64,000 nt of DNA from an uncultured delta proteobacterium (GCA_963695895.1 CAVOIK010000022.1:6485-70484); one strand, 5' to 3'; shown: positions 28,997 to 51,955, numbered from the stretch's first letter. Numbers and translations are program-made. The notes: generated by a model from the letters alone, not told the origin.

Positions 28997-31009
28997 ATGA
29001 AGGGTCCAGAAAAGCGGTCTAAAGTTCTCGTGATTGGCAGTGAAACAGAGTTCCTCCAGATGGCTGGGAAGTGCCTGGAAAATCAGTTCGACCTTCAATA
29101 CGCAACCGATCAGAACGAAGCGCTATCCAAAGCGAGAACAGAGCGGCCTGACGTCCTCATCCTAGGATACCTCGATCCTCGAGGCACTTCCTTTCGACTT
29201 CACAAGACACTCCGAGAAGGTTGGATCACAAAACATATTCCCCTCCTCGTGGTGGACGTGGAGTTACCCGGACGACCCGAAAAACGATGGACCAGTCAGG
29301 AAGCCATGGAGATGGATGCCGAAGACTACCTGTCGATTTCGGTGAACGATACCGCATCGATTCCCCAGGTCATGGCGTCCTTCGGTTTGACAGAGAGGAT
29401 CGATACCAAGTTAAGCGAGAAGGCCAATACCCTTCGAGAAGCGATACTCAACCCCCATATCTTCTGTGTCACCTGGGAACAGATCCCGGGCAGAGGCGCC
29501 TTCGAGTTGCAGCAGGAACTCGTGATCGAAAACGTGAGGAAGGCGGCCGAATTAGGCAGGATTCATGCGATCAGCGTGACAGACAACCCGGGAGGGAATC
29601 CGGCCATTTCGACGGAGATGCTCTGCATGGAGATTAAGAAATTGGGGACAGAGCCTCTCGTTCACCTGGCGTTACGAGACAAAAACAGAAGCGAGATCGA
29701 GAGCATGCTCTACGGCCTTGCCGCGGGTGGCGTGAGAAACATCTTAGTGTTGTCGGGCGATTACCCGTCGATGGAAGGATTTGAAGGAAGACCCAAGCCG
29801 GTGTTCGACATTGACCCAGTCAACGCCGTCCGTCTGATCGAAACGATGAATCGCGGTTTAGAACATATGGTCATGGGGAAAAAGGTGACGCTCGCCTCCA
29901 CAGATTTTTTTGCTGGCGTCTGCGTTTCTCCGTTCAAGCGAGAAGAATCTGAGTTGATAGCCCAGTACTACAAGCTCAAGAAGAAAATCGACGCAGGAGC
30001 GAAATTTATCATCACCCAAGTGGGTTACGATGCCAGAAAGTTTCACGAACTCATGCAATGGCTGCGCATCAATCATAATCCCATCCCCGCCCTCGCCAAT
30101 ATCTATATCTTGCCTTACGGAACAGCAAAGCTCATGAGTGCCAATAAGATCCCAGGGTGTGTAGTGACGAGCAAGCTCGTTGCTGAATTGGCAGAGGAAG
30201 CTAAGACCCAAGACAAAGGAAAATCGACTCGTCTCCTTCGAGCGGCAAAACTCTACGCGATCACCAAAGGGATGGGCTATGCCGGAGCCCATATCGGAGG
30301 GCACGGGATCACATCCGACATGGTGGAATTCATCATCACCAAGGGAGAAGAACTATCGAAGAACTGGCAGCCCCTCATTGCTGAATTCGATTATCCTCAG
30401 CCGGACGGTTTCTACCTCTTCGAGAAAGATCCCAAAACAGGCCTGAACACCGGTACCTTAGCCAAGCGACCCTTGAACCCGTCAAAACCCCTCATCTATC
30501 AGTTTTCGAGACTGGCCCATCGTTTGATCTTCAATGAGAAGAGCAGGAGATTTGAACTTCTCCAGAAGTTCGCTCAAAGGGTGGATGCCTTACCCAAAGC
30601 CAAACGAGTCCTGGGACATGTTGAACATCTCGTTAAGGCCGCCCTGTTCCACTGCATGGATTGTGGGGACTGTGCACTCTTTGATATTGCCTATGTCTGT
30701 CCCATGTCGCAGTGTCCGAAGAATCAGAGAAACGGAGCATGTGGGGGAAGCTACGAGGGGTGGTGTGAGGTCTATCCGAATGAGCAGAAGTGCATCTGGG
30801 TTCAGGCCTATGAGCGACTGAAGGCTTACAGCGAGGAGGCGAAGCTCGGGGAGACCATCATTCCTCCATGCAATTGGGATCTCTGGCAGACTTCCTCGTG
30901 GCTCAATTTCTACCTCGGCAGGGACCACACGGCCAAACGGCTCGGCGTGAAGCCGCCCCAACCGAAAAATCTACCAAAGGACCCTGGCGGAACAGAAAGC
31001 GAAAGATAA
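28997..31009 (+). CDS. Pseudo-receiver / methylene-THF reductase (MetF-like) / MetV-like Cys-rich domain fusion protein
   Basis: 670 aa. The N-terminal ~125 aa have the receiver fold pattern but lack the DD pair, the phospho-Asp (VLILGYLDP) and the Lys. The centre is ...ISVTDNPGGNP...LRDKNR...VLSGDYP (MTHFR-like). The C-terminus is CMDCGDCALFDIAYVCPMSQCPKNQRNGACGG (MTHFR C-terminal/MetV-like). Confidence 0.75.
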   Translation: MKGPEKRSKVLVIGSETEFLQMAGKCLENQFDLQYATDQNEALSKARTERPDVLILGYLDPRGTSFRLHKTLREGWITKHIPLLVVDVELPGRPEKRWTSQEAMEMDAEDYLSISVNDTASIPQVMASFGLTERIDTKLSEKANTLREAILNPHIFCVTWEQIPGRGAFELQQELVIENVRKAAELGRIHAISVTDNPGGNPAISTEMLCMEIKKLGTEPLVHLALRDKNRSEIESMLYGLAAGGVRNILVLSGDYPSMEGFEGRPKPVFDIDPVNAVRLIETMNRGLEHMVMGKKVTLASTDFFAGVCVSPFKREESELIAQYYKLKKKIDAGAKFIITQVGYDARKFHELMQWLRINHNPIPALANIYILPYGTAKLMSANKIPGCVVTSKLVAELAEEAKTQDKGKSTRLLRAAKLYAITKGMGYAGAHIGGHGITSDMVEFIITKGEELSKNWQPLIAEFDYPQPDGFYLFEKDPKTGLNTGTLAKRPLNPSKPLIYQFSRLAHRLIFNEKSRRFELLQKFAQRVDALPKAKRVLGHVEHLVKAALFHCMDCGDCALFDIAYVCPMSQCPKNQRNGACGGSYEGWCEVYPNEQKCIWVQAYERLKAYSEEAKLGETIIPPCNWDLWQTSSWLNFYLGRDHTAKRLGVKPPQPKNLPKDPGGTESER

Positions 31010-31140: not shown

Positions 31141-31198
31141 GCCCCGCAAGCCCCGCTCTGTGCCTGCCTGCGGTAGGCAGGGGCGGGGAGCTTCACTT
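31141..31198. repeat. Nested REP unit: GCCCCGC...GGCGGGGAGCTTCAC interrupted by CCTGCCTGCGGTAGGCAGG
   Basis: The outer palindrome encloses a second palindrome type. The stop codon of the kinase gene 31193-32710 lies inside the AGCTTCAC tail. Confidence 0.7.
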
Positions 31199-32710
31199 CT
31201 CCGTTCCACAGGACTCGGGGCTCAATTCCTTCGGAAAAAGAAGGGTGAACGTCGTGCCTTTGCCCTCTTCGCTTTCAACAGAGATTTCCCCTAGGTGGGC
31301 GTCAACCATACTCTTGACAATGGAAAGCCCCAAGCCTGTTCCGATGATGTGGCGCGTTTCTTGGGATTTGACTCGATAGAATCTATCGAAGATCCGAGAA
31401 AGATTCTCTTTCTTTATCCCAATGCCTGTATCCGAAACGGTTGCCTTGACGTACCCGCTCTCCTCCCCTAAGGTGATCCAGACCTTCCCATGCTCGGGTG
31501 TATATTTGATCGCGTTGGAAATGAGATTGATGAAGATTTTCTCCACGTTGCCCCGGTCAGCACAGATGAGAGAAGGGATGACTGAGGGGGAGAACTGGAG
31601 GTCGATATTCTTTTTTTCTGCATCGGTTTTCATGAAATCGACGATTTTCCGGATGATCTCTTGGAGGGTGAGGGGTTCTTTGTACTGAGTCATCTTACCT
31701 GCTTCGATTTTGGATAGATCGAGGAGATCTTTGATCAAGGCGAGGAGTCCTTTAATTCTCTCCCTGGCCCGAGAGAGCATCTCTTCTTGCTTCTCAGTGA
31801 GTTCTCCCGCAGCCTTGCTGATGATGGCGGATATCTGCTGATCCACCGTGGCGATGGGTGACCGAAGTTCATGGGCCACCATGGCAATAAACTCTGATTT
31901 CATCCGATCGAGTTCCTTCAGGTGACTGATGTCTTGAAGCACGGTAACCGTTCCCATCATCTGTCCGAGATCATTCCCTACGGGTGCCGTGTGGACCCGA
32001 AGAGTGATTTCTTCGGCGGCTCCGACCGATAGTTCTCTAGAAATGGACGTGTAGGACTTTTCCCCCATGTTCAGAACTTCGGTGATGGTCGAAGACAATT
32101 CCGAAGGGAGGGGGGCATTGGAAAGCGTTTTTCCTAACAGGCGGTCTCCAGAGACTTGGAGCATGCGGCCGGCCGCCGGGTTGGTGAGCACGATGGAACC
32201 GTCCTGATCGCAGACCAGGACACCATCTCCCATGGCGTGGATGATCGTCTTGATCTTTGACTTTTCCGTCGAGATGTCCCTTAGCGATCTTTCTCGTTCC
32301 GTCCGCAGGAATTCGGTCTCCCTTTGGAAGGCCCGCCGCTCGAGTGCCCTTCCAACCACAAGACGAAGCTGATCGGGAGTGAAGGGTTTGGGAATGAAAT
32401 CATAGGCGCCCTTCTTCATCGCCTCCACGGCAGATTCCACAGTGGCATAGCCCGTGATGACGATAACAGGGAGATCAGGATCCAAGTTTCGAGTCTGCTC
32501 CAAAACATCCATGCCACTGACTCCGGGCATCATCAGATCCAGAAGGACTGCGTCGATCTTGACATGATGCGTTTGGATTTGACTCAGTCCCTTTTCCCCA
32601 TTCTCGGCAAGGAGGACGGACCATCCCATCTTAGAAAGAATGCGTGCACATCCTTCCCGCATTGTCTGCTCATCATCAATGACGAGAATGGTTACTTGAT
32701 CGTGTATCAC
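31193..32710 (-). CDS. Hybrid sensor: N-terminal receiver-PAS-HisKA-HATPase
   Basis: ILVIDDEQ...LLDLMMPGVSG, H-box VAHELRSPI, and DTGIGI...GTGLGLS. Confidence 0.9.
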   Translation of the reverse strand: MIHDQVTILVIDDEQTMREGCARILSKMGWSVLLAENGEKGLSQIQTHHVKIDAVLLDLMMPGVSGMDVLEQTRNLDPDLPVIVITGYATVESAVEAMKKGAYDFIPKPFTPDQLRLVVGRALERRAFQRETEFLRTERERSLRDISTEKSKIKTIIHAMGDGVLVCDQDGSIVLTNPAAGRMLQVSGDRLLGKTLSNAPLPSELSSTITEVLNMGEKSYTSISRELSVGAAEEITLRVHTAPVGNDLGQMMGTVTVLQDISHLKELDRMKSEFIAMVAHELRSPIATVDQQISAIISKAAGELTEKQEEMLSRARERIKGLLALIKDLLDLSKIEAGKMTQYKEPLTLQEIIRKIVDFMKTDAEKKNIDLQFSPSVIPSLICADRGNVEKIFINLISNAIKYTPEHGKVWITLGEESGYVKATVSDTGIGIKKENLSRIFDRFYRVKSQETRHIIGTGLGLSIVKSMVDAHLGEISVESEEGKGTTFTLLFPKELSPESCGTEK

Positions 32711-32795
32711 GGCCCTGCTTCCCTATTCACCCGTGGGAGTCTATCGCGAGTTGCTCTTCGACAAATCGACCGAGAGTCTCAAGAGGGGGCGGTTC

Positions 32796-33179
32796 CTATT
32801 TTGAGAGAAGCCCCTCGATCCGTTTCACCAATACTTCGGGCTCCACGGGTTTATCGAGGTAATCGTCCGCTTCTGTCTCAAGCCCCATCTCTTGGGTGTA
32901 CCGGGTCGTTGGAACGTGCGATGCCACGGCAGTCAAAAGGAGAACCGGAATGTGACTCATTTGAGGATTCGACTTCAATTCCCTGCAGACGGCATAGCCG
33001 TCCTTTTCCGGCATCATGACATCAAGCACAATGAGATCCGGCTTCTCGCTCGTCGCTTTCTTCAAACCTTCTATCCCGTTGTAGGCCGTCACCACGTCGA
33101 ACTTCTTCGGCTTGAGAATCAGGCTCACTGCCTCCACAAAATCTGGATCGTCATCGACCAATAGAATCTTTTTCGCCAT
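32796..33179 (-). CDS. CheY-like single-domain response regulator
   Basis: ILLVDDDPD...LIVLDVMMPEKDG...LTA...LDKPV. Confidence 0.9.
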   Translation of the reverse strand: MAKKILLVDDDPDFVEAVSLILKPKKFDVVTAYNGIEGLKKATSEKPDLIVLDVMMPEKDGYAVCRELKSNPQMSHIPVLLLTAVASHVPTTRYTQEMGLETEADDYLDKPVEPEVLVKRIEGLLSK

Positions 33180-33270
33180 CTTTCTTTCCTCCTTTGACGC
33201 ATGCCTTCAGGTCATCATTTTTGTTGTTCTGTCTTCGGAATGTCCTTCCCTGGGTTATCCCTGGTAGAGT

Positions 33271-35254
33271 TCACTGAATGGAAGTCGCCTGTCCTCCGTC
33301 AAGACCTGTTTCGTTTTCCGCACTGACAGGAAGTTCAATGGTAAACGTCGATCCCTTCTCCCACCTTGCTCTTCACGCCAATCTTTCCGCCATGACTTTC
33401 GACGATACCATAAGAGGTGGCGAGGCCCAATCCTGTTCCCTTGCCCACGTCTTTGGTGGTGAAGAAGGGTTCGAAGATACGGGAGAGATTCTCCTCAGGA
33501 ATTCCCTCCCCCGTGTCTGTAAACTCCACGAAAACAGAGGTTTCGGTCGGGTGAAGAAAAGGTGGTGATGGTGAGGTCCCCAGTTCCATGCATGGCCTCG
33601 GCGGCATTGATGATGATATTCGTAAAGACCTGTTTCAACTGACCCGCATGTCCAGTGACCCAGGGGAGCGAGGGATCGAGTCTCTTCGTGATTCGGATGT
33701 TGTGAAAGAGCGCTTGATTCTCAAGGAAGAAAAGGCCGTCGGTGATGGCCCGATTGATATCCACAGGTTCCCTCTTGGGTTCGGTCTGTCGAGCAAATTC
33801 GAGAAGGCTCTTCACGATCTCCTTGCACCGACCCGTCTTCCTGAACAATCCGTTCGAGATCCTGTCTCTTGGGATCCTCTTTTGGAAGATCTTCCATCAA
33901 GAGACTCGAGTAGATCAGAATGCCACCCAGCGGGTTATTGATCTCGTGGGCAATGCCGGCGGCGAGTTTTCCAAGAGAAGCCATCTTCTCCGAGCTCACC
34001 AGTTGAAGATGAGTCTCTTCGAGTTTTTTTTCCATCTGTAGACGAGGCCGCAAATCCGTGAAAATACCGACGGTAGCAACCTCCTTGTACGACCTGTCAT
34101 AGATGAGAGCCGCTGAGAGCTGGATGGGAACTTGCTCTCCCGCCTTGTTGAGAACGGTCAACTGGAGAGGCGTCAGTTTTCCCACCCCGCCGTGGTCTGG
34201 ACTTCGAAGGTTTTCCATGATCTCTTTGGCCATGCCTTTGGGATAAAGCTCCGTGATGTGAAGCTTTCCAATCACCTCGCTTGCCGAATACCCCGTGAGA
34301 TCTTCGGCCCCCTTGTTGAAGATGAAAATGTTTCCTTTCATATCCGTCGCTATGATTCCGTCCACCGAACTTTCGATCAAATTCCTGAAGAATTCATTCG
34401 TCTCGCGACGCTCTTCCTCGATCCGTTTCCGTTCCGTAATATCCAAATTAATTCCCTGGTAGCCGACAATGTCTCCTTTCTCATCTGCGGATGGGGTAAC
34501 CTGTCAATAAGCACCGTCATCTTTTCCCATCTTTCTTTTTGAATTCCACCTCCATGTCCTTAACATACCCATCCCGTTCGATTTTTTCCTGAAAGGTCTT
34601 TCGATCCTCAGGGTTGGCATAGAGATTTTCTGTGAGGTCCATGTTAAGACATTCCTCTTTACTGGAGTAATCGAGCATCTCAAGCAACGCCTGGTTGCAG
34701 TCCAGGAACTTGCCTTCTTTCGAACTGATAAAGAGGCCATGTCTCACCCGTTCGAAAAGATTCCGAAGCCTCTCCTCAGAGTCCTTAAGGTCTCTTTCGT
34801 ATTTCTTTCGGACCGTGATATCGCGGACATAGGCATAGATCTTCACGCCACCCTTCTCCGATTTTGCCGAAGCGATGCAAATGTCGGTCTCTTTAAGTTG
34901 ACCTTGGGGGGTCAGGATATTCATCTCTACGCAAAGCTTCTTTCCCGGCCCCTCTCCTCGGATGACGGTCCCTTCGAGAAATTCCCTGTCTTTTTTTCCG
35001 ATAACAGAGAAGAAATTTTTTCCGATAAGGTCTGATTTAGGAATTCCTGTAATGTCAGAGGCCATCTGATTGGCAAACAAGATGTTAAATTGTTCATCGA
35101 AGACAAAGATCCCATCCTCCCCCATCTCGGCAATCTTGTCAAAACGATATCCGATCTCCTGGTTTTCCGGTTCTTTGTTTCTAGCCCAAGGGCGAGAAGA
35201 TGTCTTTTTTTGCCTTTCCTTCACGGAAACGCCCTCACAGGCCTGCGTGGTCAA
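33271..35254 (-). pseudogene. Multi-PAS sensor histidine kinase, at least four frameshifts plus an in-frame TGA
   Basis: ORF pieces 34517-35254, 33721-34446, 33495-33848 and 33335-33607 chain into PAS-PAS-PAS-HisKA ([10 protein letters not shown])-HATPase (DTGEGIP...GTGLGLA). ...[17 protein letters not shown]... near 34505 is a nonsense codon, not an indel. Confidence 0.8.
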
Positions 35255-36101
35255 AAACTACTGGAATCTGACTCTCCCACCCGATGGGGATCAGATGGAC
35301 TCCCTGGCAGAAAGGCCGGATAGCCTTGACGATCTCTGCTGCAATCTCGACACTTGTTCTCTGTTTATCAGAGGCTTTCATCAAACGGTCAATGATGGCT
35401 TCGGGAATGGAGGCTCCCTCCACATGTTTGCTGATATACCGAGCCATGCCCACCGACTTGAGTAAGGTGATGCTTGCGATGATGGGCACCTTGAAAGGGC
35501 TCACCTTTCCGGCGAAGGCCTCAAACAGAGCGGGATCAAAGATGGAGTTTGTGAAAAAGAAATCCACACCCAAGCGAACCTTTTTCTCCACATCGTCAAG
35601 GTCGAGCCCCTGTCCCAAGGTTCCAACATGGGTCTGAGTCCCGAGGGTGAACGTGGGTTTTCCGCTCAACTCATGGCCCGCAAGATCCCATCCCTCTCGA
35701 AGCCGTTTGGCTGCTTCCAGGAGACCCAAGAGGTCCAAATCTGAGACAGACTTCGCTTCGTAGTGATCCCCGAGAGAAGGATCGTCTCCCTGAAGGACAA
35801 AAATATTTTCAAGGCCCAGAGCAGAAGCGTTGAGGAGATCGGATTGAAGAGCTAAACGATTACGGTGACGACAGGCGAGGTTGAAGATCGGTTCGATGCC
35901 TTTTCCTTTAAGCAGCGTGCAGACAGAAAGAGAGCCCAGTCTCATGATGGCATTCTGCAGATCTGGAACACTGACCGCATCCACGCGATGTCGGAGGTGC
36001 TCGGCGTGTTCCATAAGCTCGGAGACCTGGTTGCCCTTCGGTGGCTGGAGTTCAGCGATGACGATGAACTTTCCAGAGGCCAACTTTTCTTTGAGTGACA
36101 T
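35235..36101 (-). CDS. metF: Methylenetetrahydrofolate reductase, small acetogen-type paralog 1
   Basis: Start MSLKEKLASGKFIVIAELQPPKG behind GAGGAGAA. It has MTHFR-like TIM-barrel motifs and follows metV. Confidence 0.8.
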   Translation of the reverse strand: MSLKEKLASGKFIVIAELQPPKGNQVSELMEHAEHLRHRVDAVSVPDLQNAIMRLGSLSVCTLLKGKGIEPIFNLACRHRNRLALQSDLLNASALGLENIFVLQGDDPSLGDHYEAKSVSDLDLLGLLEAAKRLREGWDLAGHELSGKPTFTLGTQTHVGTLGQGLDLDDVEKKVRLGVDFFFTNSIFDPALFEAFAGKVSPFKVPIIASITLLKSVGMARYISKHVEGASIPEAIIDRLMKASDKQRTSVEIAAEIVKAIRPFCQGVHLIPIGWESQIPVVFDHAGL

Positions 36102-36325
36102 AAGGGTTCTCCTCTGAGGTGGCGACTCCGTGTTCCAATTTATCCGCCTGCGGGTTCTGAAAGCTAAGCCGTAGCGCTCGTCTGCCCATAGCCCCACGCC
36201 GAGTGGAACAATAACCTTGTTTGTGTTTGAGAGGGAAATCAGATCAGAACATCACGTTCAAGCCGTGATGACAGTTATGGAACGATTGAACCTTCCTCCG
36301 ATTCTGTCAACCTCAGAGGAGACGT

Positions 36326-37000
36326 TCACTGAGCATATCGTTTCTTATAGGGCTCTTGGATGAGAGATCCCCGCTTTGTGTTTTTCCATTCTCGCGGAGG
36401 CCGCACCTTCAGGATCAGGTCCAACCGATCCTGTTTTTTTAAACGATCATAGATGTCGAACCATGCACAGGGGGTGTCTTTGCTGACTTCACACTTCCCA
36501 TCGACAGACGTCCCGCCGCAGGGCCCGTTGAAAATGGATTTCGCACACCTCGTCACTGGACAGATCCCTCCTGTGTCCCCCAGGACACATTCTCCACAGG
36601 AACGACAGTTCTCCTCGTACCATCCGAGGTCTCGATCCACTCCCACGAACACCGTATTGAGAGCTGGGAAAACGACTTTTTCAGGATATCGATCCGCCAG
36701 AAATTGAACGCCTGCCCCGCAGGCCATCGAGAGGACAGCGTCGTAGGACTTAACTTTTTCATCTAATTCAGAATAGAAATCAGGGTTGCATTGGCGCTCA
36801 ATCGTGTACCCGTCCATGTGAAGCGAACCTTGATCGGCCTTACACAGTTCCTGCAATTCCTCGTTGAGCAGGCCGACCTCTTTTTGACCTCCGGCAAGAC
36901 AAATCGATGTGCACCCGCCACATCCCACGTTCAGCACTCGTTTGCGTCCTTTGATCATCTCCTTAATCTCTTCCAGAGGTTTCTTCTCTGCGACAATCAT
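36326..37000 (-). CDS. metV: MetV-type zinc/FeS Cys-rich subunit associated with MetF
   Basis: VLNVGCGGCTSICLAGG...CRSCGECVLGDTGGICPVTRCAKSIFNGPCGG.... Confidence 0.75.
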   Translation of the reverse strand: MIVAEKKPLEEIKEMIKGRKRVLNVGCGGCTSICLAGGQKEVGLLNEELQELCKADQGSLHMDGYTIERQCNPDFYSELDEKVKSYDAVLSMACGAGVQFLADRYPEKVVFPALNTVFVGVDRDLGWYEENCRSCGECVLGDTGGICPVTRCAKSIFNGPCGGTSVDGKCEVSKDTPCAWFDIYDRLKKQDRLDLILKVRPPREWKNTKRGSLIQEPYKKRYAQ

Positions 37001-37024
37001 TCTCTTCCTCCACTGCTAAAGTCG

Positions 37025-37426
37025 CTATCTCTTAACGTGGCATTCTCCGCAAAAAAAAGGACCTGTCTTCTTCCCTTCTTTCTTGTTCATTCTGTGGCAA
37101 TCAAGACACTGTCTATGAAACGCCGTCTGGAGATCCAGACGTGCCTTCGGTCCGTGGCATTCCTGACAACGAATTCCCGACTTTCCCTCTTCAAGCTCGG
37201 CCTCGTCAAGAACATTCTTCCCCTGATCGTACCGATGGTGACATTCCTTACAGGAGAGCCCTCCTTCCATGTGACGGTTGTGAGGAAAGGAGACAGGGGT
37301 CCGTTCTCGCTTCGGAAAGGAGGGGCTATTCAGCATCATCGTGTCTGGCTGGGCCCAGAGAGCCTGTCCAAAAAAGAGAAAGAAGACGGTCGCCGTGAGC
37401 GAGATGAGACGTTTCTTCTTTTTCAC
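37025..37426 (-). CDS. Tetrahaem cytochrome c3-family protein, secreted
   Basis: Four CxxCH motifs (CKECH, CQECH, CLDCH, CGECH). The signal peptide VKKKKRLISLTATVFFLFFGQALWA assumes a GTG start at 37426. The alternative ATG at 37486 would translate through a REP unit. Confidence 0.75.
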   Translation of the reverse strand: MKKKKRLISLTATVFFLFFGQALWAQPDTMMLNSPSFPKRERTPVSFPHNRHMEGGLSCKECHHRYDQGKNVLDEAELEEGKSGIRCQECHGPKARLDLQTAFHRQCLDCHRMNKKEGKKTGPFFCGECHVKR

Positions 37427-37533
37427 GGGCAAGTCGGCTGGAAGTCCTGCCCTGTAGGCAGGGAGGAAAGCCGACCCTATAATCATATCTTCATTTCCCG
37501 GAAGCCCCGCCCTGTGGGCGGAGAGCTTCATTC
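37427..37533. repeat. Two REP-like units inside the operon
   Basis: GTCGGCT..CCTGCCCTGTAGGCAGGG..AGCCGAC (nested hairpin) and GCCCCGCCCTGTGGGCGGAGAGCTTCA. Confidence 0.7.
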
Positions 37534-37562
37534 TTGTTCCATTCTTTATGATGGTCATCGCA

Positions 37563-38003
37563 TCATAACCAGCTTTCGACAGGAGAGCCATCCATATCAG
37601 GATACACCTCCTGGGATCGGCAGATGCTCCGGCCGAAAGCGATGATACTCGGAATATCAACGCCAATCGGACAATAACAACGGCGGCAGAGAACACAGTT
37701 TCTCCAGACGAGGCTCTTGATCTTTTCCAAGAATGCCCGGTCCACGGCTCCTCGCTTTTTGTAAAGCTTTCCGACAGAGTGAATAGCTTTATAAGAAGGC
37801 ATGTACTGAGGGTCCTTGTGATGGGACATATAAAGGAAACAACTCTCAGCACAGAGGCTGCAGTGGACGCAGTGGGAGAGGAGTCGTTTCATTTTTCCCT
37901 TTTTCCGTTTCAGCATCTGTTGGATCTCGTCCCGGTTCACAGGGGTTGGGGTCTTCTCAGACATCCTTCTTTCCTCTCTTCCATCCGCTGGGACAGCTAC
38001 CAC
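37563..38003 (-). CDS. Small 2x[4Fe-4S]-type protein (HdrC / DsrK N-terminal-like), no CCG domain
   Basis: CVHCSLCAESC and CVLCRRCYCP cluster motifs. The ORF start overlaps the stop of the cytochrome b gene. An alternative start is MSEK at 37964. Confidence 0.65.
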   Translation of the reverse strand: MVAVPADGREERRMSEKTPTPVNRDEIQQMLKRKKGKMKRLLSHCVHCSLCAESCFLYMSHHKDPQYMPSYKAIHSVGKLYKKRGAVDRAFLEKIKSLVWRNCVLCRRCYCPIGVDIPSIIAFGRSICRSQEVYPDMDGSPVESWL

Positions 38004-38662
38004 GTTCTCGTCCCGCGTGCGAAACTGTATTCACTTCCAATCATAAAACGATAAAGAAAGAAAAAGATCATATGGCCCAGCCTGGTAAAGGGAATAGTGA
38101 TCAACATGATCTCCCCGGACAGAATATGCAGGAAGATCATCGTCCGATAGTCAAACCACTGATGGGTGGCAAAGAAACCGGTGATGAAAGGGGCCAGGAC
38201 GATGAGCAAAACGAGATAGTCATAGGAAGTGGAAATACTCCGGACCAGGCGAAGAAAAATACGTCGACACAGAAAGAAGAGGCCGCCGAGCAGAACCAGA
38301 AGCGTAAAGACATCCGATGTTGACTCGTCAAAACTCCAGAGCTGAATTCCCCAGGCTGCTTCGAGAAGGATTTGATGGGCCAAAAGGAAAATGGGGACGA
38401 TGAAAATCAGAATGTGAAAAGTGCAGGTGACCACGATGACGACAGGATGGGTGCCAAAAATCGTCCTCTTCAACAACTTGATCCAGGTACGAACTCGGGA
38501 TCCTAACCCCTGCGAAGGACTCTGTTTCTTGAGTTCTAAGTTCAGGAGGACCCATTCTTTTTCCCGGGTGAGGCTGAAAAACCGATAGATCTGAAATAGG
38601 ACACCCAGGATGAAGATGACAAATGACATCAGGATCAGGGGGCCCTCAATGAATCCAACCAT
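37997..38662 (-). CDS. Integral membrane NarI/DsrM-like cytochrome b
   Basis: 221 aa with about five hydrophobic helices and conserved His residues (FHILIF, LAHQIL, FLHILSGE). The layout is typical of the nitrate-reductase gamma-like family. Confidence 0.6.
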   Translation of the reverse strand: MVGFIEGPLILMSFVIFILGVLFQIYRFFSLTREKEWVLLNLELKKQSPSQGLGSRVRTWIKLLKRTIFGTHPVVIVVTCTFHILIFIVPIFLLAHQILLEAAWGIQLWSFDESTSDVFTLLVLLGGLFFLCRRIFLRLVRSISTSYDYLVLLIVLAPFITGFFATHQWFDYRTMIFLHILSGEIMLITIPFTRLGHMIFFFLYRFMIGSEYSFARGTRTW

Positions 38663-38946
38663 GAAGATCTCCTCGGATCGAATCTAACTTCTTGTGCTAG
38701 TGCACCGTATCAGAAATAACATGCATAAGACCCAATAAAGGGGCGGGTGGAGATATCGGAAGAGCCTTACGGCGGCAACCTTTCACTGCATGCATACTAC
38801 TCTCGAAGGGTACGCAATCCCTACTGTTTCCAGCCACCCACATAGTTGCCCTGACCTTTCCGATATGACCGCATACGTAAGGCGATGAAGATATTTCTAC
38901 CCGCCCTGCCAGCAGGGCTTTTTTAATCTATTTCTGAAACACAACA

Positions 38947-39864
38947 CTAGACTTGAGGTCTAGGAATCAATTTGGCTCGTTCAGCAATTTCTGGAACCCG
39001 GTGTTCCCACTCAATCGCCATGAGATGGATGCCACGAACGCCTTTGATCTCCCTCAACTCTTGGATTTGTTCCACGCAGAGCTGAATTCCCTCGTCTGCC
39101 GGTTTTTTCGCTTTGACCATGCGATCAATGATCTCATCAGGGATGATAATTCCCGAGACGTTCTTCGCCATGTACCGAGCCATACCTCCGGATTTGAGCG
39201 GAGTGATTCCAGCCAAGATATAGACCTTTTCGGTGAGGCCCAACTCATCGGCCTGTTTCATCCACTCTCGAAATCTCTTCATGTCGTAGATACACTGCGT
39301 TTGGATAAAGTCAACACCCGCACTGATCTTCTTGGCAAGCCGATGGACCCGCCATTCGAAAGGCTCTGCAAAGGGGTTCGCAGCGGCTCCGATGAAGATC
39401 TTGGGGGGTTCGTCAATGGGCTCCCCATTGATGAATTTCCCTTCATCGCACATCTTCTTGACGGTGCTGATCAACTGGATGGAGTCAATGTCGTAGACCC
39501 CCTTGCTCATCGGGTGATCCCCAAACTGTTGGTGATCCCCTGAGAGACAGAGCATGTTGCGGATGCCGTGGGTATAGGCCCCCAGAATGTCACTTTGCAT
39601 GGCCAACCGGTTCCGGTCGCGGCAGACCATCTGGAAATTCGGTTCCAAACCCTCCTGAATGGCAAGGAGACAGGCCGCCCAACTTGCCATTCGAACGACA
39701 CCGGTCTGGTTGTCCGTGATGTTCACCGCATCGACGATTCCTCTGAGATGACCGGCTTTCTTGCGAACGACTTCTGCATTGGCTCCGCGAGGAGGACCGA
39801 GCTCGCCCGTAAAAGCAAAATGCCCAGAGGTTAAGATCTTCTCAAGCCGACTTCCGGATTTCAT
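38947..39864 (-). CDS. metF: Methylenetetrahydrofolate reductase, small acetogen-type paralog 2
   Basis: 305 aa, ...FTGELGPPRG...VNITDNQTG...CRDRNR...LCLSGDH.... Confidence 0.85.
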   Translation of the reverse strand: MKSGSRLEKILTSGHFAFTGELGPPRGANAEVVRKKAGHLRGIVDAVNITDNQTGVVRMASWAACLLAIQEGLEPNFQMVCRDRNRLAMQSDILGAYTHGIRNMLCLSGDHQQFGDHPMSKGVYDIDSIQLISTVKKMCDEGKFINGEPIDEPPKIFIGAAANPFAEPFEWRVHRLAKKISAGVDFIQTQCIYDMKRFREWMKQADELGLTEKVYILAGITPLKSGGMARYMAKNVSGIIIPDEIIDRMVKAKKPADEGIQLCVEQIQELREIKGVRGIHLMAIEWEHRVPEIAERAKLIPRPQV

Positions 39865-39936: not shown

Positions 39937-40839
39937 CTATAACTCAAGCCATGAATCGGAATAGAGAATTTTCCCCATCAACACCTTGGTTGTCTTCACA
40001 TAGCCCCCCTCTTCCTTATTCAGGGACTTGAGGTCGAGCTCTTCCCCATCCATGACCCGGTAGATCAGCTTCTTGAGATCCTCCTGTCCGCCTCTCGCAT
40101 AGCGTTTGAGGTCCTCGTCGAAGGCGTCGACGATGGCAGAGGCCATGTTGTATCGTTCGAGCATCAACAGGTACGTTTGATTGAGAATGGGCCGCAAATG
40201 GTTAGGGGCTCCGTTGGAGACGTTGGAAAGACCACAGGTAGACCTCATGCCCGGGCAGACCTCTTGGAGGTCTTTGAACATCTTCATAAACTCGACGCAA
40301 CTGGGGACCTGAACTTGGCTCTGGGGGCTGGTAATGGGAGTGACAATGGGGTCCATCCAGATATCCTCGCCTGCAATCCCAAATTCCATCGCCTTTTGCA
40401 TCAGTTCCGCGGCGAGGACTCCCCTTTCCTCGGCATCCCTGGGAAGCCCTGAAGGTCCCCAGAGGAGGGCGACGAAGCCTGCATCATATTTCTGAGCAAT
40501 AGGCAATTTCACATCCATACTCTCAGGACGGGCCATGATGGAGTTGATGACAGCTTTCCCTTTCTTATTCTTGTAAACTTTGAGACCTGCTTCGATGGCC
40601 TCTGCATTGACGGTATCGAGGTAGAGCGGCGTGTCCACGACCTCCTGAACCCTCTTCACAACCCACTCCATCAGTTCTCCCCCCCCTTTACGGGCGGGTC
40701 CGAGATTGATGTCGATGTAATCCACACCTGCCCCGGCTTCAGCGATGGCAAGTTCCTGAATCGGTTTGGGATCCTTGTCCTTCATGGCTGTTCCGATCTT
40801 CTTCACCATTACATTCAGATTTTCTCCGATAAGCAACAT
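39937..40839 (-). CDS. acsE: Methyl-THF:corrinoid/iron-sulfur protein methyltransferase
   Basis: Pterin-binding-domain protein, MLLIGENLN...DYIDINLGP...GLSNVSNG, located in the acs cluster. Confidence 0.9.
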   Translation of the reverse strand: MLLIGENLNVMVKKIGTAMKDKDPKPIQELAIAEAGAGVDYIDINLGPARKGGGELMEWVVKRVQEVVDTPLYLDTVNAEAIEAGLKVYKNKKGKAVINSIMARPESMDVKLPIAQKYDAGFVALLWGPSGLPRDAEERGVLAAELMQKAMEFGIAGEDIWMDPIVTPITSPQSQVQVPSCVEFMKMFKDLQEVCPGMRSTCGLSNVSNGAPNHLRPILNQTYLLMLERYNMASAIVDAFDEDLKRYARGGQEDLKKLIYRVMDGEELDLKSLNKEEGGYVKTTKVLMGKILYSDSWLEL

Positions 40840-40947
40840 GGCATCGCTCCTTTATTCATCTCATGTGGGGGTTATGCGTTCAGAGTCTGGAGCATCACTC
40901 TGATTGGGGTTACCCCGAACTCCGAACGCCGAACTTCAAACTTGGAA

Positions 40948-42295
40948 TCATGCTCCCATCTTAAGATACGCCGTTAGGTGAGCTGCCTCTCGCGGGCCGA
41001 TCTTCACTTCCCAATCTTTCCCCAATTCTTCTTCGAGATCTCCGCTGACCGCAGCCACTGATCCGGGAATGACCACACGGCGGTGTTTGACCTTCTCCGT
41101 AATCCCACTTTTCTTAATGAAGCCTCCGATCGCATCGCCCACAAACTTCCCGGCAGCCCAAGCGGTGAGAACGGAGAGCCCTTCGGTGTCCATCACGAGA
41201 AGCCAACTAGGGACTCGGCTCGCTTCAACTTCCGCAGACACGATGAAGTAGGTGAGAGAAAAATTGGTGGTGATCAGGACCGGAGAGTCCTCGCCAGGAT
41301 TGCCGATCGGGTAAATGCCCTGTTGCATCATCATGGGTCTCTGGGGGTCCGTATAGATGTTGAGTCGCTCGACGAGAAGCGGGAATAGACTCTCGCCATG
41401 AAGATTGGAGAGCACAATAATCCCGGCATACTTTGCTATGAAAGTCGCTGCAATCAAGGCTTCCTTCATGGCGGTCGGTGGTCATCTCACAGGGGAACGT
41501 GATGGTAGGGAAACCGAGGGAGCGATTTTTTTGGTTCAGTGCAGCTCGGCGGATGAAGATCTGATCTTCAAAAGCCTTTCGCACTGTTCGCGAACCAGAG
41601 TCCAGAACAAGATCCTTGAGGCCTGCTCCCGTCAGCTTGTCGGAGAGTTGGGACAGAGCCTCAAAGTTATCGGCCTTCACCACCAGAGGACACTTGTTCT
41701 CTTTGGCAAGGTTGACCAGCGCTTCGCTATTGCCATTCGTCGCTGCGTAAATCAAGGGAACTCGGTCTGCACACACCTTCACGCCTGCGGCCAAAGACTC
41801 TGCGTTTTGGCTCATGAGGATGAGGGCTGCGTCGGTCTCGGATTTCACTTTGTTGATGAGCGAAACGAATTTTTGCGAATCTCCAGACTCGTTTTTGACC
41901 GCAATCATCTCAGGTCGTAAGGTGAGCCCCACTCTCTCGTACTTGAACTCTTTGAATTTTTTGAGACGAGAATTGACCTCGGCTTCGGGAAGGGTATCGC
42001 TCATGAGGACTGCAATCCCGGGTTTGTTCACAAAGGTTTTTTCGTGACGAAAGAGTACGGTCTCTCCGCCAATCCTCACCACGTTTTCTCCTGACCCAAT
42101 GGTTAGAGGTCGGATGGGTGGCGCAGAGGCTTCCGAGAGCATGGCCTTTGCTTCTTCGGAGACATAGGGGCAAGCCGAAAGCTCTGCTTTCCCCGCAGCT
42201 AAGTTCATGGCAAAGGCCAGGCAAGTGGGGACACCGCACTCCTTGCAGTTCGTTTTCGGTAACAGCTTGAAGATCTGGATTCCCGTGAGTGCCAT
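40948..42295 (-). pseudogene. acsC: Corrinoid iron-sulfur protein large subunit, one frame disruption near 41470
   Basis: N-terminal FeS motif CKECGVPTCLAFAMNLAAGKAELSACP. ORFs 41225-42295 and 40948-41469 join at ...TITFPCEMTTD|MKEALIAATFIAKYAG.... Confidence 0.85.
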
Positions 42296-42440
42296 CGCGT
42301 TTGCTCCTTTCAGAATCCGTTAGGAGTGAGGCGTCAGGGGTAAGGGGTGACAGATGAAAACTATACTACAGTTGTCTCATCGTCATTAACCCCTCACTCC
42401 TTGCTCCTTGCGCCTTACGGCTTACTTTGCTATGCTCTAT

Positions 42441-42462
42441 GCCTGCCTGCCGGCAGGCAGGC
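42441..42462. repeat. Perfect 22-nt palindrome GCCTGCCTGCCGGCAGGCAGGC
   Basis: Located in the 177-nt acsB-acsC spacer. Related CCTGCCTGC..GCAGGCAGG units occur at 31163, 37446 and 56595. Confidence 0.8.
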
Positions 42463-42472
42463 GCTTTGCGAT

Positions 42473-44680
42473 TTATCCAAGAATCGGATCCATCGAGAGG
42501 GCGGGATGATTCTTCTCCGTCAGGAAGGGAAGAATTTCCTCCTCCGTCATGCCGATCGTCTCATCTGCGATCATGTCCAGAAGATCTGGTATTCCAATCT
42601 CTTGGGCCCGCTTCTTCAGACGTTCACCGATTTCGTCCTTGAGCATCTTGGGTATCCAGACGAGGCGTTTGAGTCCACCGTCTCCAACGAGCCATTTTCT
42701 CTGGGTGATATTGTACTTGCTGTGGCCCACAAACCCAGGAGTGACGGCACCCCCGCCCACGGAGCCTGCAAGCGTGGTAAACTTCATGCCGCAAGGCGTC
42801 ATACCGAGGTAGTCACGGTTCACGGTCATCAATCCGTTGCACATGGGAAGGACCGCCGCGATGCACTCGCAGCAACCGCATGTCGTCATGGGGTCGTAAA
42901 CCAGGCTATAAAAATTGTAGTGATCGATCTTCTGACGGGAGGCCTTGAACACAAACTCGTCAACACCCTTCCATCGGCCCAGTTTTGCATCGATGATCTC
43001 ACCCTTGGCAACAGGTTGGTTGGGTCCGGTTGGACTGATTTCATAGGAGGCTCTACAATCCATCCAGTTGTAGGCGCCACAAAGTCCGGTCCTCTCGGGA
43101 CTCACGACGCACACGTGGCTGGGTGCGAAGGACTGGCAAAGGGTACAGGAGTAAAAGATGTCCGTCGTCTCATCCGTCATCCCTTCAATCCTCACATCCC
43201 TTTTGCCGTAAACTTCTTTCGCTTTGGCGAGCATCTCCTCCACCTTATCTTTTTCGGTGTAGACTTTGACTTGAACCTTATCAAAAATCGCGCCGAAGTC
43301 CTGGTGGAATTTGGCATGGAGGATCTTTCCCAGGTGGGAGAGCCGGAACCCTTTCTCCACGGCGCCCTTGCTCACACGCAACCAGGCAATATCCCTCTGG
43401 CCAATATGCATGATCCCCTGGGCATAATTGATCAGATGGTGGATCTGCCGCTCCAGGATCGGTTCGAAATCCTCCTGCATCTGCCGTCCGGCCACTTCGG
43501 CAACGATGGCGAGGGGCAATTGAGCGGGAGGTTTGATCTGATCAAGGTCCGGACCGATGACTTCCACTTTTCCATCTTCTACCTCGTCCATGTTCCTGGA
43601 AGTGACCCACTCGACCGCGTGAGTTCTTCCTCCGCCACACTCCAGGTAGATGTCTTCGCCTCGTACCCTTTCCCCTTCGAAGGCAGGACCGTAGGAGACC
43701 GGGATGGGGACTTCCGCGACGGCGACCTTCAATCCTCTGACCTCCACCGCCTTCTGGACGATCTGGTCGTGAGGAATGTTGGAAACCACGTGCTCGTAGG
43801 TGCAGATGCCCGTCGGAAGGACCTCGGGAATGGGTGTATCCGCGATGGTGGGGAACCCCCAGTTGATAGCCCCCGCCGCGTTGGCATACCACTCATCGTT
43901 GACAAATCCCAAAGGCATGACAAAGGCGAAGGTACGGTCCTTGTTGTAGATGAGGTTCTTTCGGAAATCCCCGGGTTTGATTCCACCAAAGGCCATCGCC
44001 ACACGGCAGGCAAACCCCATAGCAAAGACAGCAGCGGAAATGTCAGGTCCAAAGGAAACGAGACGGGTCGGCCACCCGATCTGAACCCCTGCCTCGACCA
44101 ACTGCTCGGAGAAACGTTTTCCCTCATTCTCCGCACACATGAAAATGTAGAGGTTTTTCTCCTGAAGCTCCGTGGCAATCTTCTTGGCGATTTCTGGCGA
44201 GGGGGCTGCCCCGGCAATGGCTGCAAATCCAGGCGCCGTCCCATCGACGAATTCGATCCCACGCTTGCGGAAGATCACGTCATCCGCGGCTCCGAGCCAA
44301 ATGTTATTGGGCAAGGGGTCTTCCTGTTTGGTATAAAAACCTGGATCTTCAAGGTAACGAATGGCTTCGATGATCTCCTCGGCAAAGAAGGTCACCATTC
44401 CGGCATCCAGAGCAGGAGCCAAGTAGGGTAGGGCAACCTTTTCCTTCACCAGGGGAGGCATCAAGCTACGACATCGGTCCAACACAGGCTTGAGGTCTGC
44501 CAGGTTCTTTACCGGAATCCCCAGGATCGCATAGATCACCGGCAGGTAGTAAGCGGTATTTGGGAACCCCACCTCCTGATTGGGTCCCCATTTCTCAAGG
44601 GCCTCCTGGTACTTCTTCTCGGCCCTTGCGAGGATTTTCTGACCCCCTCGGATTGCGGCGGATGCAATGATCTTGGACAC
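42473..44680 (-). CDS. acsB: Acetyl-CoA synthase (A-cluster subunit)
   Basis: 735 aa, MSKIIASAAIRGGQKILARAEKKYQEALEKWG.... It has ACS-typical length, sequence and context. Confidence 0.95.
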   Translation of the reverse strand: MSKIIASAAIRGGQKILARAEKKYQEALEKWGPNQEVGFPNTAYYLPVIYAILGIPVKNLADLKPVLDRCRSLMPPLVKEKVALPYLAPALDAGMVTFFAEEIIEAIRYLEDPGFYTKQEDPLPNNIWLGAADDVIFRKRGIEFVDGTAPGFAAIAGAAPSPEIAKKIATELQEKNLYIFMCAENEGKRFSEQLVEAGVQIGWPTRLVSFGPDISAAVFAMGFACRVAMAFGGIKPGDFRKNLIYNKDRTFAFVMPLGFVNDEWYANAAGAINWGFPTIADTPIPEVLPTGICTYEHVVSNIPHDQIVQKAVEVRGLKVAVAEVPIPVSYGPAFEGERVRGEDIYLECGGGRTHAVEWVTSRNMDEVEDGKVEVIGPDLDQIKPPAQLPLAIVAEVAGRQMQEDFEPILERQIHHLINYAQGIMHIGQRDIAWLRVSKGAVEKGFRLSHLGKILHAKFHQDFGAIFDKVQVKVYTEKDKVEEMLAKAKEVYGKRDVRIEGMTDETTDIFYSCTLCQSFAPSHVCVVSPERTGLCGAYNWMDCRASYEISPTGPNQPVAKGEIIDAKLGRWKGVDEFVFKASRQKIDHYNFYSLVYDPMTTCGCCECIAAVLPMCNGLMTVNRDYLGMTPCGMKFTTLAGSVGGGAVTPGFVGHSKYNITQRKWLVGDGGLKRLVWIPKMLKDEIGERLKKRAQEIGIPDLLDMIADETIGMTEEEILPFLTEKNHPALSMDPILG

Positions 44681-44705
44681 GTTTCTCCTCCTTCGTCAGT
44701 GAATT

Positions 44706-44784
44706 CCCCTCCCCGGGGGAGGGATGGAGGGGAGGGGACGGACTCTTCACACCCCCACCCTAACCTCCCCCGTCAAGGGGGAGG
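44706..44784. repeat. GC-rich palindromes CCCCTCCCCGGGGGAGGG and CCTCCCCCGTCAAGGGGGAGG
   Basis: Located in the acsA-acsB spacer. Confidence 0.7.
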
Positions 44785-44804
44785 AAGTGACTGTTGTTAA
44801 GTCT

Positions 44805-46787: not shown

Positions 46788-46793
46788 TGTGAT

Positions 46794-47750
46794 TTACTTT
46801 GCCGTCAAATCTGCGATCATCTCACGGACCAGTTTGACTGCATCTGGATGTCTCATGACCAACACATCGGCCCCTGCCAATAGAAGCATGATGGCCGTTG
46901 TGGCTTCCATTAAAATCCCTCTCCGCTTTGCATCTCCCAGAGCGGGCGCCTCTTCTGCGGGCGTCTTGGCTTCCTTGGTCTTCCAGACTTCCTTGGCCAT
47001 GTTGCAGAGCATGGGAAATTGGAGTCGCTCATCCTGCTGGGTGAGGGCGGCCATACGATCTCGCTCCATGACGGAGTAGGTATACTCGATCCCGTATCCG
47101 AGTCCTCCGGTCGTCGGATCCACGAGGATCTGGCCATCGGGGACACCCAAGTTTCCAAGAAGAATGTTCAGCTGTTTTGCGAGATTGATGTCAATGGGGC
47201 TGGTGGCCACGGCGGTGTGTTTGTATCCGATGGCTCCTGCACCGACCTGTTTATAGTTTTGTTCGACGACTGGACCAATGATCAGGTTCATCCCGTCACA
47301 GGTTTCCGCCACCTTTCGAAGTACCTCGGCGTCCTTCTCAGCATTTCCGCTTCCCCAGACGATGACAGGGACATCCACGGCTTCAGCAACTTTTTTGGAC
47401 GTCTGGGCAGCTTCCTCACTGGGGCGGTTGAGACCGTTTGGATCCGTACTGGCCAACTGGAGACAGATGATTTCAGCTCCGTAGCTCTGAACACATTTCT
47501 TGGCCCAGGCTGCCGGGTCGTTCAACACCTCTTTGTAGGGTTCCAGGGCAGCCTCTGGCCAGTCGTCCGGAACGGCGTCGTAAACCTCCATGGCGATTCG
47601 TGGAGGATGAGGCATCGCTCCTTCGAAGAGGTGAAAAGGATAGGAGGTCTCTCCTCCCAATGTGATGGCTTTGGATCCCTTCCCCAGTGTGATTTCTTTG
47701 ATCTTTCCCGTATATGTGATTTTCGGTATCTCAAATGCCACGAGACTCAC
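46794..47750 (-). CDS. acsD: Corrinoid iron-sulfur protein small subunit
   Basis: 318 aa with an AcsD/CdhD-like TIM-barrel sequence, located in the acs cluster. Confidence 0.85.
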   Translation of the reverse strand: MSLVAFEIPKITYTGKIKEITLGKGSKAITLGGETSYPFHLFEGAMPHPPRIAMEVYDAVPDDWPEAALEPYKEVLNDPAAWAKKCVQSYGAEIICLQLASTDPNGLNRPSEEAAQTSKKVAEAVDVPVIVWGSGNAEKDAEVLRKVAETCDGMNLIIGPVVEQNYKQVGAGAIGYKHTAVATSPIDINLAKQLNILLGNLGVPDGQILVDPTTGGLGYGIEYTYSVMERDRMAALTQQDERLQFPMLCNMAKEVWKTKEAKTPAEEAPALGDAKRRGILMEATTAIMLLLAGADVLVMRHPDAVKLVREMIADLTAK

Positions 47751-47768
47751 CTCCTTCTTTTGAGGGTG

Positions 47769-49103: not shown

Positions 49104-49155
49104 CTTTCCTCCCCCCTTATTCAGGCATCCCCTCTCCTCGAGGGGGCTGAATGGA

Positions 49156-51944: not shown

Positions 51945-51955
51945 TCTTTATCAAA

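Follow-up and report, generated by a model that had tools for sequence, protein, structure and literature searches.

A Tmc/Hmc-like cytochrome module encoded with MetFV-type methylene-tetrahydrofolate reductase in uncultured bacteria

Directly downstream of acsE in an uncultured Syntrophales-like bacterium, six genes on the minus strand combine the subunits of a MetFV-type methylene-tetrahydrofolate (methylene-THF) reductase with a putative electron conduit across the cytoplasmic membrane. The stretch of DNA studied here, referred to as the window, comprises 64,000 nucleotides of an assembly deposited as an uncultured delta proteobacterium (GCA_963695895.1 CAVOIK010000022.1:6485-70484). The six genes encode, in order of transcription, MetF_A, a cytochrome b, a short iron-sulfur (FeS) protein, a tetrahaem cytochrome c3, MetV, and MetF_B (Table 1). 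A first-pass annotation had proposed this order, the coordinates of the six genes, and their location directly after acsE; all are present as claimed, the genes are intact at essentially the positions it gave, and its family calls are upheld by Pfam matches above gathering thresholds, with profile hidden Markov models PF02219, PF02665, Fer4, PF02085, and PF12225 all finding their expected partners.

Table 1. Features of the cluster, in window coordinates
Feature	Position	Strand	Basis or remark
MetF_A, methylene-THF reductase catalytic subunit; paralogue kept with the module in all lineages	38947-39864	-	PF02219, 2e-38
Dihaem cytochrome b membrane subunit, TmcC/HmcE-like, NarI superfamily, 221 amino acids (aa)	37997-38662	-	PF02665, 27 bits (gathering score 22.9)
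Cytoplasmic 133-aa 2x[4Fe-4S] protein; N-terminal ferredoxin domain of HmcF/TmcB/DsrK without CCG	37563-37964	-	Fer4_8, 4e-7; NCBIfam
Insertion of a doublet of repetitive extragenic palindromic (REP) units, 105 nt, in frame, 5' end of the c3 gene	37424-37528	-	Absent from L001
Periplasmic tetrahaem cytochrome c3, TmcA-like (type II c3)	37025-37426	-	PF02085, 9e-14; NCBIfam TmcA
MetV, small FeS subunit of MetFV-type methylene-THF reductase	36326-37000	-	PF12225, 5e-36
MetF_B, divergent second MetF paralogue	35235-36101	-	PF02219, 1e-26
acsE	39937-40839	-	Directly upstream of MetF_A
Upstream Wood-Ljungdahl genes acsE, acsC (frameshifted), acsB, cooS, acsD, folD, cooC, RACo, fhs (frameshifted)	39937-53782	-	Pfam matches; L001 gene calls

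Redox proteins of the cluster

The cytochrome b had been called NarI/DsrM-like by eye. That call was right, and comparison with NCBIfam narrows it to a TmcC/HmcE-like type, with TmcC the best model (8e-59; 198.7 bits, equivalog cut-off 240) and HmcE the second (7e-47). Cytochromes b from the relatives described below score 157 to 196 bits against the TmcC model, and we read the group as a probable sister family of TmcC rather than as its equivalog. Four histidines, H83, H96, H179, and H197, are invariant across the family and align on the haem ligands H56, H66, H187, and H205 of Escherichia coli NarI (hhalign probability 86%, E = 4.7e-6), so that none of the ligands on which the first-pass annotation had made its reading depend is missing. 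Hydropathy and the positive-inside rule predict five transmembrane helices with the N terminus outside and the C terminus inside, as in NarI, the lysine and arginine counts being 8.8 in loop 1, 4.1 in loop 3, 2.9 in the C terminus, and 0.1 to 0.4 in the remaining loops. Two of the histidines lie in the second helix and two in the fifth, the pattern of the dihaem NarI/HdrE/DsrM superfamily; given this topology, H96 and H179 should lie toward the periplasmic side and H83 and H197 toward the cytoplasmic side. Despite the common topology and ligands, the similarity to NarI is remote, and NarI is a quinol oxidase that docks NarH, whereas no molybdoenzyme accompanies the window cytochrome. Profile searches against PDB sequences gave weak matches to NarI, SdhB, and HdrC only.

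The FeS protein matches the ferredoxin part of the corresponding subunits of known complexes. Its best NCBIfam model is HmcF (5e-28, model positions 38-154 of 457), followed by TmcB (4.5e-26, positions 22-136 of 430; 91.4 bits against a cut-off of 735) and, much more weakly, DsrK (8e-11). Pfam recognizes Fer4_8 and Fer4_17 in it and no CCG domain (PF02754), and the TmcB, HmcF, and DsrK matches are confined to the ferredoxin portion. A start at GTG 38003, overlapping the cytochrome b stop codon, had been proposed for this gene, but it is unlikely: a GGAAAGAAGG ribosome-binding site precedes ATG 37964, and the homologues begin at the same point. The two genes are then separated by a 32-nt gap and do not overlap.

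Eight cysteines of the FeS protein are invariant (C32, C35, C38, C42, C90, C93, C96, and C98), forming the motifs CxxCxxCxxxC and CxxCxxCxCP, and its C terminus is conserved in the family. Because the best 120 of 384 homologues are all short (109 to 156 aa) and consist of Fer4 domains alone, the missing CCG domain is, as judged from these alignments, a family trait and not a truncation, and the first-pass statement that the protein lacks this domain is borne out by Pfam, NCBIfam, and homologue lengths alike. When 1.84 billion cluster representatives were searched exhaustively with a profile, a small family of 16 clusters emerged at E <1e-30. The longer homologues that we read (P0368, P0369, P0372, P0380, P0390, and P0394) extend into a further C-terminal domain, as TmcB and HmcF do, and have CxxCxxCxxxC as their second motif, followed by proline or threonine (CxxCxxCxxxCP/CT), in place of the CxxCxxCxCP of the short family. 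In the window protein the latter motif spans residues 90-99 (window 37668-37697) and is two residues shorter than its counterpart in the longer TmcB/HmcF-like proteins. It appears usable as a signature for the MetFV-linked FeS family. AlphaFold2 models of the FeS protein (23 sequences; predicted local distance difference test score [pLDDT] 61.5; Foldseek matches in the PDB at noise level only, E >1) and of the cytochrome b (16-sequence alignment; pLDDT 52) were not used as evidence.

The cytochrome c3 carries four invariant CxxCH motifs, four invariant distal histidines, and a signal peptide ending in AQ. It matches the NCBIfam TmcA model at 2.6e-26 (91.9 bits, below the cut-off of 114), and its closest PDB matches are HmcA and the Desulfovibrio africanus cytochrome c3 3cao. 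The start of its gene has been altered by the REP doublet, which is placed just after the ancestral ATG (37529-37531) and is absent from L001, a second assembly of the same population (ENA ERZ25039502) in which c3 begins ATG-AAA-AAG-AAG. The element ends in GTGAAAAAG and thereby recreates a GTG start for c3 at 37426; were translation to begin at ATG 37531 instead, the product would be longer by 35 residues specified by the insertion. Two REP units had been noted in the first-pass annotation as separating the FeS gene from the cytochrome gene. The doublet exists, but it is corrected here to a strain-specific, in-frame insertion within the 5' end of c3, and a role of the REP units as operon breakers was rejected on the same grounds. 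The doublet is itself a dispersed element of about 105 nt, similar to a miniature inverted-repeat transposable element, with two hairpins about 60 nt apart, and its presence in c3 is polymorphic between the two assemblies. The window holds related copies at 23457-23530 (23457/23516), 31146-31160, and 56095-56109 (6 matches against 0.62 expected by chance).

The REP insertion and the frameshifts in several window genes (acsC, fhs, ligA, and the alpha-2-macroglobulin and penicillin-binding protein genes) could be taken to mean that the module is a non-functional relic or an assembly artefact, with the short FeS gene a truncated tmcB or hmcF. Conservation effectively refutes such decay, to which we assign only a very slim chance: the 133-aa form, with its eight cysteines and its C terminus, is kept throughout the family, all ligands of the three redox proteins are invariant across phyla, and the short family has a cysteine signature of its own, unlike that of the longer proteins. 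A truncated tmcB pseudogene was likewise rejected as an identity for the FeS gene, the short form with its invariant cysteines being conserved.

The reductase subunits fit the MetFV type, in which a MetF without an NAD(P)H-binding partner domain is encoded together with MetV. MetF_A retains the Glu, Asp, and Thr-Gln motifs, which we take to be equivalent to E28, D120, and Q183 of the E. coli enzyme; MetF_B retains the Glu and Asp motifs and has Thr-Asn/His in place of Thr-Gln. There is no structure of MetV in the PDB.

Conservation and gene neighborhood

A conservation scan of one genome per GTDB species yielded 45 loci, all in metagenome-assembled genomes (MAGs). The majority are labeled Syntrophaceae, Syntrophales, Thermodesulfobacteriota, or "Deltaproteobacteria," and the remainder Myxococcota, Spirochaetota, Thermoguttaceae, Bacteroidales, Thermodesulfovibrionia, and Acidobacteriota; the habitats of these uncultured species are peat, soil, groundwater, and sediments. 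The first-pass annotation had treated an arrangement conserved in no relative as fatal to its proposal, and the same gene set recurs in 45 species from several phyla.

Every one of the 44 loci in which both genes are visible has the FeS gene next to that of the cytochrome b; the sequence of the remaining locus, L046, opens only 32 codons before the cytochrome b gene ends. Of the 37 loci that extend far enough to show it, 36 have MetV downstream of the cytochrome b, and MetF is present wherever there is room (35 of 35). Median gaps are 30 nt between cytochrome b and FeS, 35 nt between FeS and c3, 73 nt between c3 and MetV (24 nt in the window), and 12 nt between MetV and MetF. The module-adjacent MetF is 60 to 84% identical to MetF_A in 41 of the 45 loci. 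MetF_B, about 35% identical to MetF_A, is found in 22 of the 45, in Syntrophales-type clusters only and after a gap of 37 to 536 nt, and a homologue search identified it as a conserved, lineage-restricted paralogue.

Gene order differs among lineages while the set is maintained. Syntrophales-type clusters read acsE, MetF_A, cytochrome b, FeS, c3, MetV, MetF_B; elsewhere the order is cytochrome b, FeS, (c3), MetV, MetF, or else MetF, cytochrome b, FeS, MetV, cytochrome c. At the Myxococcota loci (L030, L036, L041, and L042) a cytochrome with 16 CxxCH motifs stands after MetV in place of c3, and the one scanned (L030:9905-11434) passes the HmcA equivalog cut-off (455.5 bits versus 400). Since the module may thus contain either c3 or HmcA, both "Tmc-type" and "Hmc-type" versions exist, although HmcB, HmcC, and HmcD were seen in none of the loci.

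In two MAG- and metagenome-derived sequences the adjacency has become covalent. One open reading frame (ORF) in a Bacteroidales MAG (L045:255-1345) encodes both the cytochrome b and the FeS protein, and the same fusion occurs in P0364, an independent 375-aa metagenomic protein. In these polypeptides of about 360 to 375 aa, the FeS domain is joined to the C terminus of the cytochrome b, which is its cytoplasmic end. The Bacteroidales form is reminiscent of fused cytochrome b/HdrD-like proteins already known, and P0367 seems to be a piece of a third such fusion.

In the window, the module follows a complete Wood-Ljungdahl cluster that runs on the same minus strand throughout from fhs (~53782) through RACo, cooC, folD, acsD, cooS, acsB, and acsC to acsE (Pfam and ORF calls). 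A trimmed Tmc-like module among so many C1 genes might be a coincidental neighbor of MetFV that serves another cytoplasmic acceptor, such as ferredoxin, carbon monoxide dehydrogenase/acetyl-CoA synthase (CODH/ACS), or RACo; the cluster is rich in FeS enzymes, and the FeS subunit alone is a ferredoxin-like wire. However, acs genes are lacking within 8 kb of the module in L030, L039, and L044 (Pfam scans of the flanks) and in L027, L034, L036, and L040 to L042 (tblastn with the window acs proteins), and MetF and MetV still flank the module at such loci, with nothing else conserved. MetV follows closely behind the FeS gene or c3 (median 42 to 73 nt), and the MetF and cytochrome b ORFs of L030, as called, overlap by 4 nt. 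We therefore regard a chance association as very unlikely. Where acs is absent, the flanking genes are unrelated (inositol phosphatase, acyl-CoA synthetase, RecQ, and AAA ATPase, for example), and the Myxococcota, Spirochaetota, Thermoguttaceae, and Bacteroidales MAGs share the module alone. From these unrelated flanks it follows that the module is, on the evidence of gene neighborhoods, self-contained and travels as a unit whose constant partners are MetF and MetV, not CODH/ACS.

Some relatives encode further redox partners. Between acsE and MetF_A, L015:1896-5272 holds an HdrA-like protein, MvhD, and a second MetV-MetF pair, as do L014, L016, and L032 by similarity. A NuoE/F/G-like trio lies directly upstream of MetF_A in L003:3386-6556 and, judged by spacing only, probably also in L022, L026, L028, and L029. 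HdrC-like (Fer4_8) and HdrB-like (CCG) genes are found a few kilobases downstream of MetF_B, beyond a PAS kinase gene, at L027:13651-14196 and L013:14588-15442. The first-pass claim that the cytochromes and the FeS protein are the only redox partners encoded with MetFV consequently holds for the window but not for those relatives that add HdrA/MvhD with a second MetVF, or the NuoEFG-like trio.

The kinase in question is a multi-PAS histidine kinase that lies consistently downstream of MetF_B in Syntrophales-type clusters (L027:11227-13647; L003:11423-13354; L015:11680-13677). In the window the corresponding region, 31193-35254 on the minus strand, holds the kinase followed by response regulator genes, a position that hints at dedicated regulation of the cluster. 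On the plus strand at 28997-31009, a 670-aa ORF combines a degenerate receiver-like N terminus (weak PhoB/PleD matches) with a methylene-THF reductase domain (PF02219, 2e-19; the Glu, Asp, and Thr-Gln motifs are recognizable by eye) and, at the C terminus, a MetV domain (PF12225, 8e-29). Its orthologues, 72 to 76% identical, occur near the module in L003, L008, L010, L028, and L029, and it may be either a regulated single-chain MetFV or a folate-sensing regulator.

Several other window genes are broken into two ORFs that overlap or adjoin, namely acsC (40948-42295), fhs (51999-53782), ligA (57857-59693), an alpha-2-macroglobulin gene (19241-23421), and a PBP1C-like gene (24013-25930). The breaks in L001 fall elsewhere, in cooS and acsE. 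The splits are most likely indel errors of an error-prone long-read assembly rather than pseudogenes. An Rfam scan of the window gave no match.

A candidate membrane-bound methylene-THF reductase

Taken together, the cytochrome b, FeS protein, and c3 resemble a permuted and trimmed Tmc/Hmc set, as far as homology can tell. TmcABCD of Desulfovibrio vulgaris forms a conduit across the membrane from periplasmic cytochromes to a cytoplasmic reductase; its TmcA is an acidic tetrahaem c3 of the periplasm, its TmcC a cytochrome b of the NarI type, and the N-terminal domain of its TmcB binds 2x[4Fe-4S]. The best NCBIfam models for the window proteins are those of Tmc or its sister complex, Hmc. The differences from Tmc are nonetheless considerable. 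The CCG domain of TmcB, which holds the catalytic non-cubane cluster, is missing, as is TmcD, a Trp-rich subunit that is the fourth product of the Tmc operon: the intergenic gaps of the six-gene cluster contain no coding-strand ORF of at least 60 aa, and none of the six proteins matches the TmcD model. The order is C-B'-A where Tmc has A-B-C-D, all scores fall under the equivalog cut-offs (198.7 of 240, 91.4 of 735, and 91.9 of 114), and the cytoplasmic end is MetVF where Tmc addresses a DsrC-type disulfide. HmcABCDEF resembles the module in that HmcF is the best model for the FeS protein, HmcE the second-best for the cytochrome b, and HmcA the match for the Myxococcota 16-haem cytochrome, but the module lacks HmcB, HmcC, HmcD, and the CCG domain of HmcF, and the window cytochrome c has four haems in place of the 16 of HmcA. 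DsrMK and HdrED likewise pair a dihaem cytochrome b with a docking cytoplasmic FeS subunit. They differ in depending on menaquinol or methanophenazine and in the one or two CCG motifs (CXnCCGXnCXXC) that define DsrK and HdrD and serve thiol/disulfide chemistry (bioRxiv 10.1101/2023.08.03.551783), of which the window FeS protein has none.

On the reductase side, the closest comparison is with the MetFV-HdrCBA-MvhD enzymes of Moorella thermoacetica, Sporomusa ovata, and Thermacetogenium phaeum, which have the same MetF and MetV core without an NAD(P)H site and extra electron transfer subunits encoded beside that core in a Wood-Ljungdahl cluster. The S. ovata and T. phaeum enzymes are membrane associated, and H2-dependent methylene-THF reduction by membranes has been shown (PMC9430772, PMC6895022). 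The partners in that system are soluble Hdr and Mvh proteins and no integral membrane subunit is encoded, in contrast to the integral cytochrome b and periplasmic cytochrome c of the window; L015 carries both kinds of partner side by side. Neither the type III set (hdrCBA and mvhD) nor the type IV partner (RnfC2) is present among the annotated ORFs of the 64-kb window.

These comparisons support the first-pass proposal of a minimal Tmc/Hmc/Dsr-type complex that is encoded alongside MetFV and is probably its electron partner, which would make it a candidate site of energy coupling. The support comes from homology, the histidine ligands, the status of the short FeS form as a family trait, and synteny in 45 species, including loci without acs. 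We consider it probable, with moderate confidence, that MetF_A, the cytochrome b, the FeS protein, c3, and MetV form one membrane-bound methylene-THF reductase complex on a Tmc/Hmc chassis, with MetF_B a lineage-specific extra.

In such a complex, the periplasmic TmcA-like c3, or HmcA, would exchange electrons with the periplasmic cytochrome c pool, and the TmcC/HmcE-like cytochrome b would move them across the membrane through its two stacked haems. The 2x[4Fe-4S] protein would accept them on the cytoplasmic side of the cytochrome b, at its C-terminal face, and pass them to the clusters of MetV, the flavin of MetF, and finally the methylene-THF/methyl-THF couple, by a path that should be reversible. 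The sequences show the homologies, the cofactor ligands, the membrane topology, the conserved synteny, and the natural cytochrome b-FeS fusion; docking on MetV, the sense of electron transfer, and coupling to energy conservation are inferred. In Tmc, Hmc, and Dsr complexes, the CCG domain acts on a disulfide or trisulfide. The FeS subunit of those complexes ends in this domain, which carries out the thiol/disulfide chemistry (bioRxiv 10.1101/2023.08.03.551783). In the module the disulfide reductase head is absent and MetVF holds its place in the gene cluster, where it may have been swapped in during evolution.

The methylene-THF/methyl-THF couple has an E0' of about -200 mV (PMC6895022). If periplasmic oxidation of H2 or formate fed electrons inward, protons would be released outside and consumed inside, a redox loop of the same kind as that proposed for Sporomusa ovata (PMC9430772), and methylene-THF would thereby become a respiratory electron acceptor. 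In the reverse direction, the oxidation of methyl-THF would drive electrons outward with the aid of the membrane potential. Methyl-THF oxidation is a recognized bottleneck of syntrophic acetate oxidation (PMC6895022, PMC6295475), and the outward step would be what syntrophic acetate oxidizers need for the production of H2 or formate.

Several observations weigh against a single membrane-bound complex. MetV is missing downstream in L018, a locus that possesses MetF_A, cytochrome b, FeS, and c3, and no multihaem cytochrome c lies next to the module in L034, L038, L039, and L040, so c3 is not obligatory. The Hdr/Mvh- and Nuo-like genes of some relatives may offer other electron routes. Within the window, the spacings from MetF_A to cytochrome b (284 nt) and from MetV to MetF_B (224 nt) exceed the family medians, the REP doublet disturbs the start of c3, and promoter and terminator scans of the sequence gave signals only at the level of chance. 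All carriers, finally, are uncultured organisms represented by MAGs.

The variable presence of c3 bears in particular on whether electrons pass through the quinone pool. A NarI-type cytochrome b could provide a menaquinone or menaquinol site, as in DsrMK, HdrED, and NarGHI, making the complex a methyl-THF:menaquinone oxidoreductase with c3 or HmcA as a side entry. Membership of the NarI superfamily with all four haem ligands is consistent with such a site, as are the four lineages that have cytochrome b, FeS, MetV, and MetF without any nearby cytochrome c; menadiol, moreover, reduces DsrM (bioRxiv 10.1101/2023.08.03.551783), and quinone-dependent methylene-THF reductase activity has been proposed for T. 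phaeum (PMC6895022). Against this, a periplasmic multihaem cytochrome lies inside the module in 39 of the 45 loci and is swapped between the TmcA and HmcA types, which argues that it is the normal partner. From the published potentials (PMC8578096, PMC6895022), menaquinol (about -74 mV) could not drive the -200 mV reduction of methylene-THF in a NarI-like geometry that generates proton motive force, and a quinone-coupled enzyme would be confined to the oxidative direction. We consider quinone coupling unlikely, if deserving of attention, and retain the cytochrome c-linked complex as the probable arrangement.

Possible energy coupling at the methylene-THF step

Membrane coupling of methylene-THF reduction has been debated for more than 45 years. 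Thauer and others are said to have proposed in 1977 that the reaction is the energy-conserving site of the Wood-Ljungdahl pathway, of which it is, to our knowledge, the only strongly exergonic step. The literature has long postulated a link between the reductase and the membrane but knows of no integral membrane subunit (PMC8578096, PMC9430772, PMC6895022), and according to reviews genome sequences gave no evidence for a membrane-bound enzyme (PMC8578096).

The module described here encodes, beside metF and metV, just the parts that were missing: a cytochrome b embedded in the membrane, an FeS wire on the cytoplasmic side, and a cytochrome c in the periplasm. One may see in it a conduit of the Tmc/Hmc type that has gained a new catalytic head or, equally, a MetFV reductase with a new membrane-integral partner. 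Public annotations of its proteins read "nitrate reductase gamma subunit," "Fe-S oxidoreductase," or hypothetical. Full-text literature searches returned no account of a Tmc/Hmc-like module linked to MetFV, a mention in the 2011 review by Pereira of energy metabolism in sulfate reducers remaining possible.

The module may define a fifth type of methylene-THF reductase, one that is respiratory: MetFV, cytochrome b, and cytochrome c would form an integral-membrane complex that works as a proton-motive redox loop, is reversible by way of the membrane potential, and evolved by exchange of a CCG domain for MetVF. We put the chances of this fuller proposal at about even. If it is true, methylene-THF would serve as a terminal electron acceptor, the reverse reaction would find use in syntrophic or complete acetate oxidation, and the methylene-THF reduction step would have gained, in this module, its first genetically defined membrane anchor.

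A concrete candidate for the long-sought membrane link of methylene-THF reductase brings an old hypothesis down to five or six genes open to expression and assay. It suggests a modular route of evolution by which Tmc/Hmc-type conduits gain new cytoplasmic catalytic heads, and it bears on how uncultured Syntrophales-like bacteria may conserve or invest energy at this step, in whichever direction they run the pathway.

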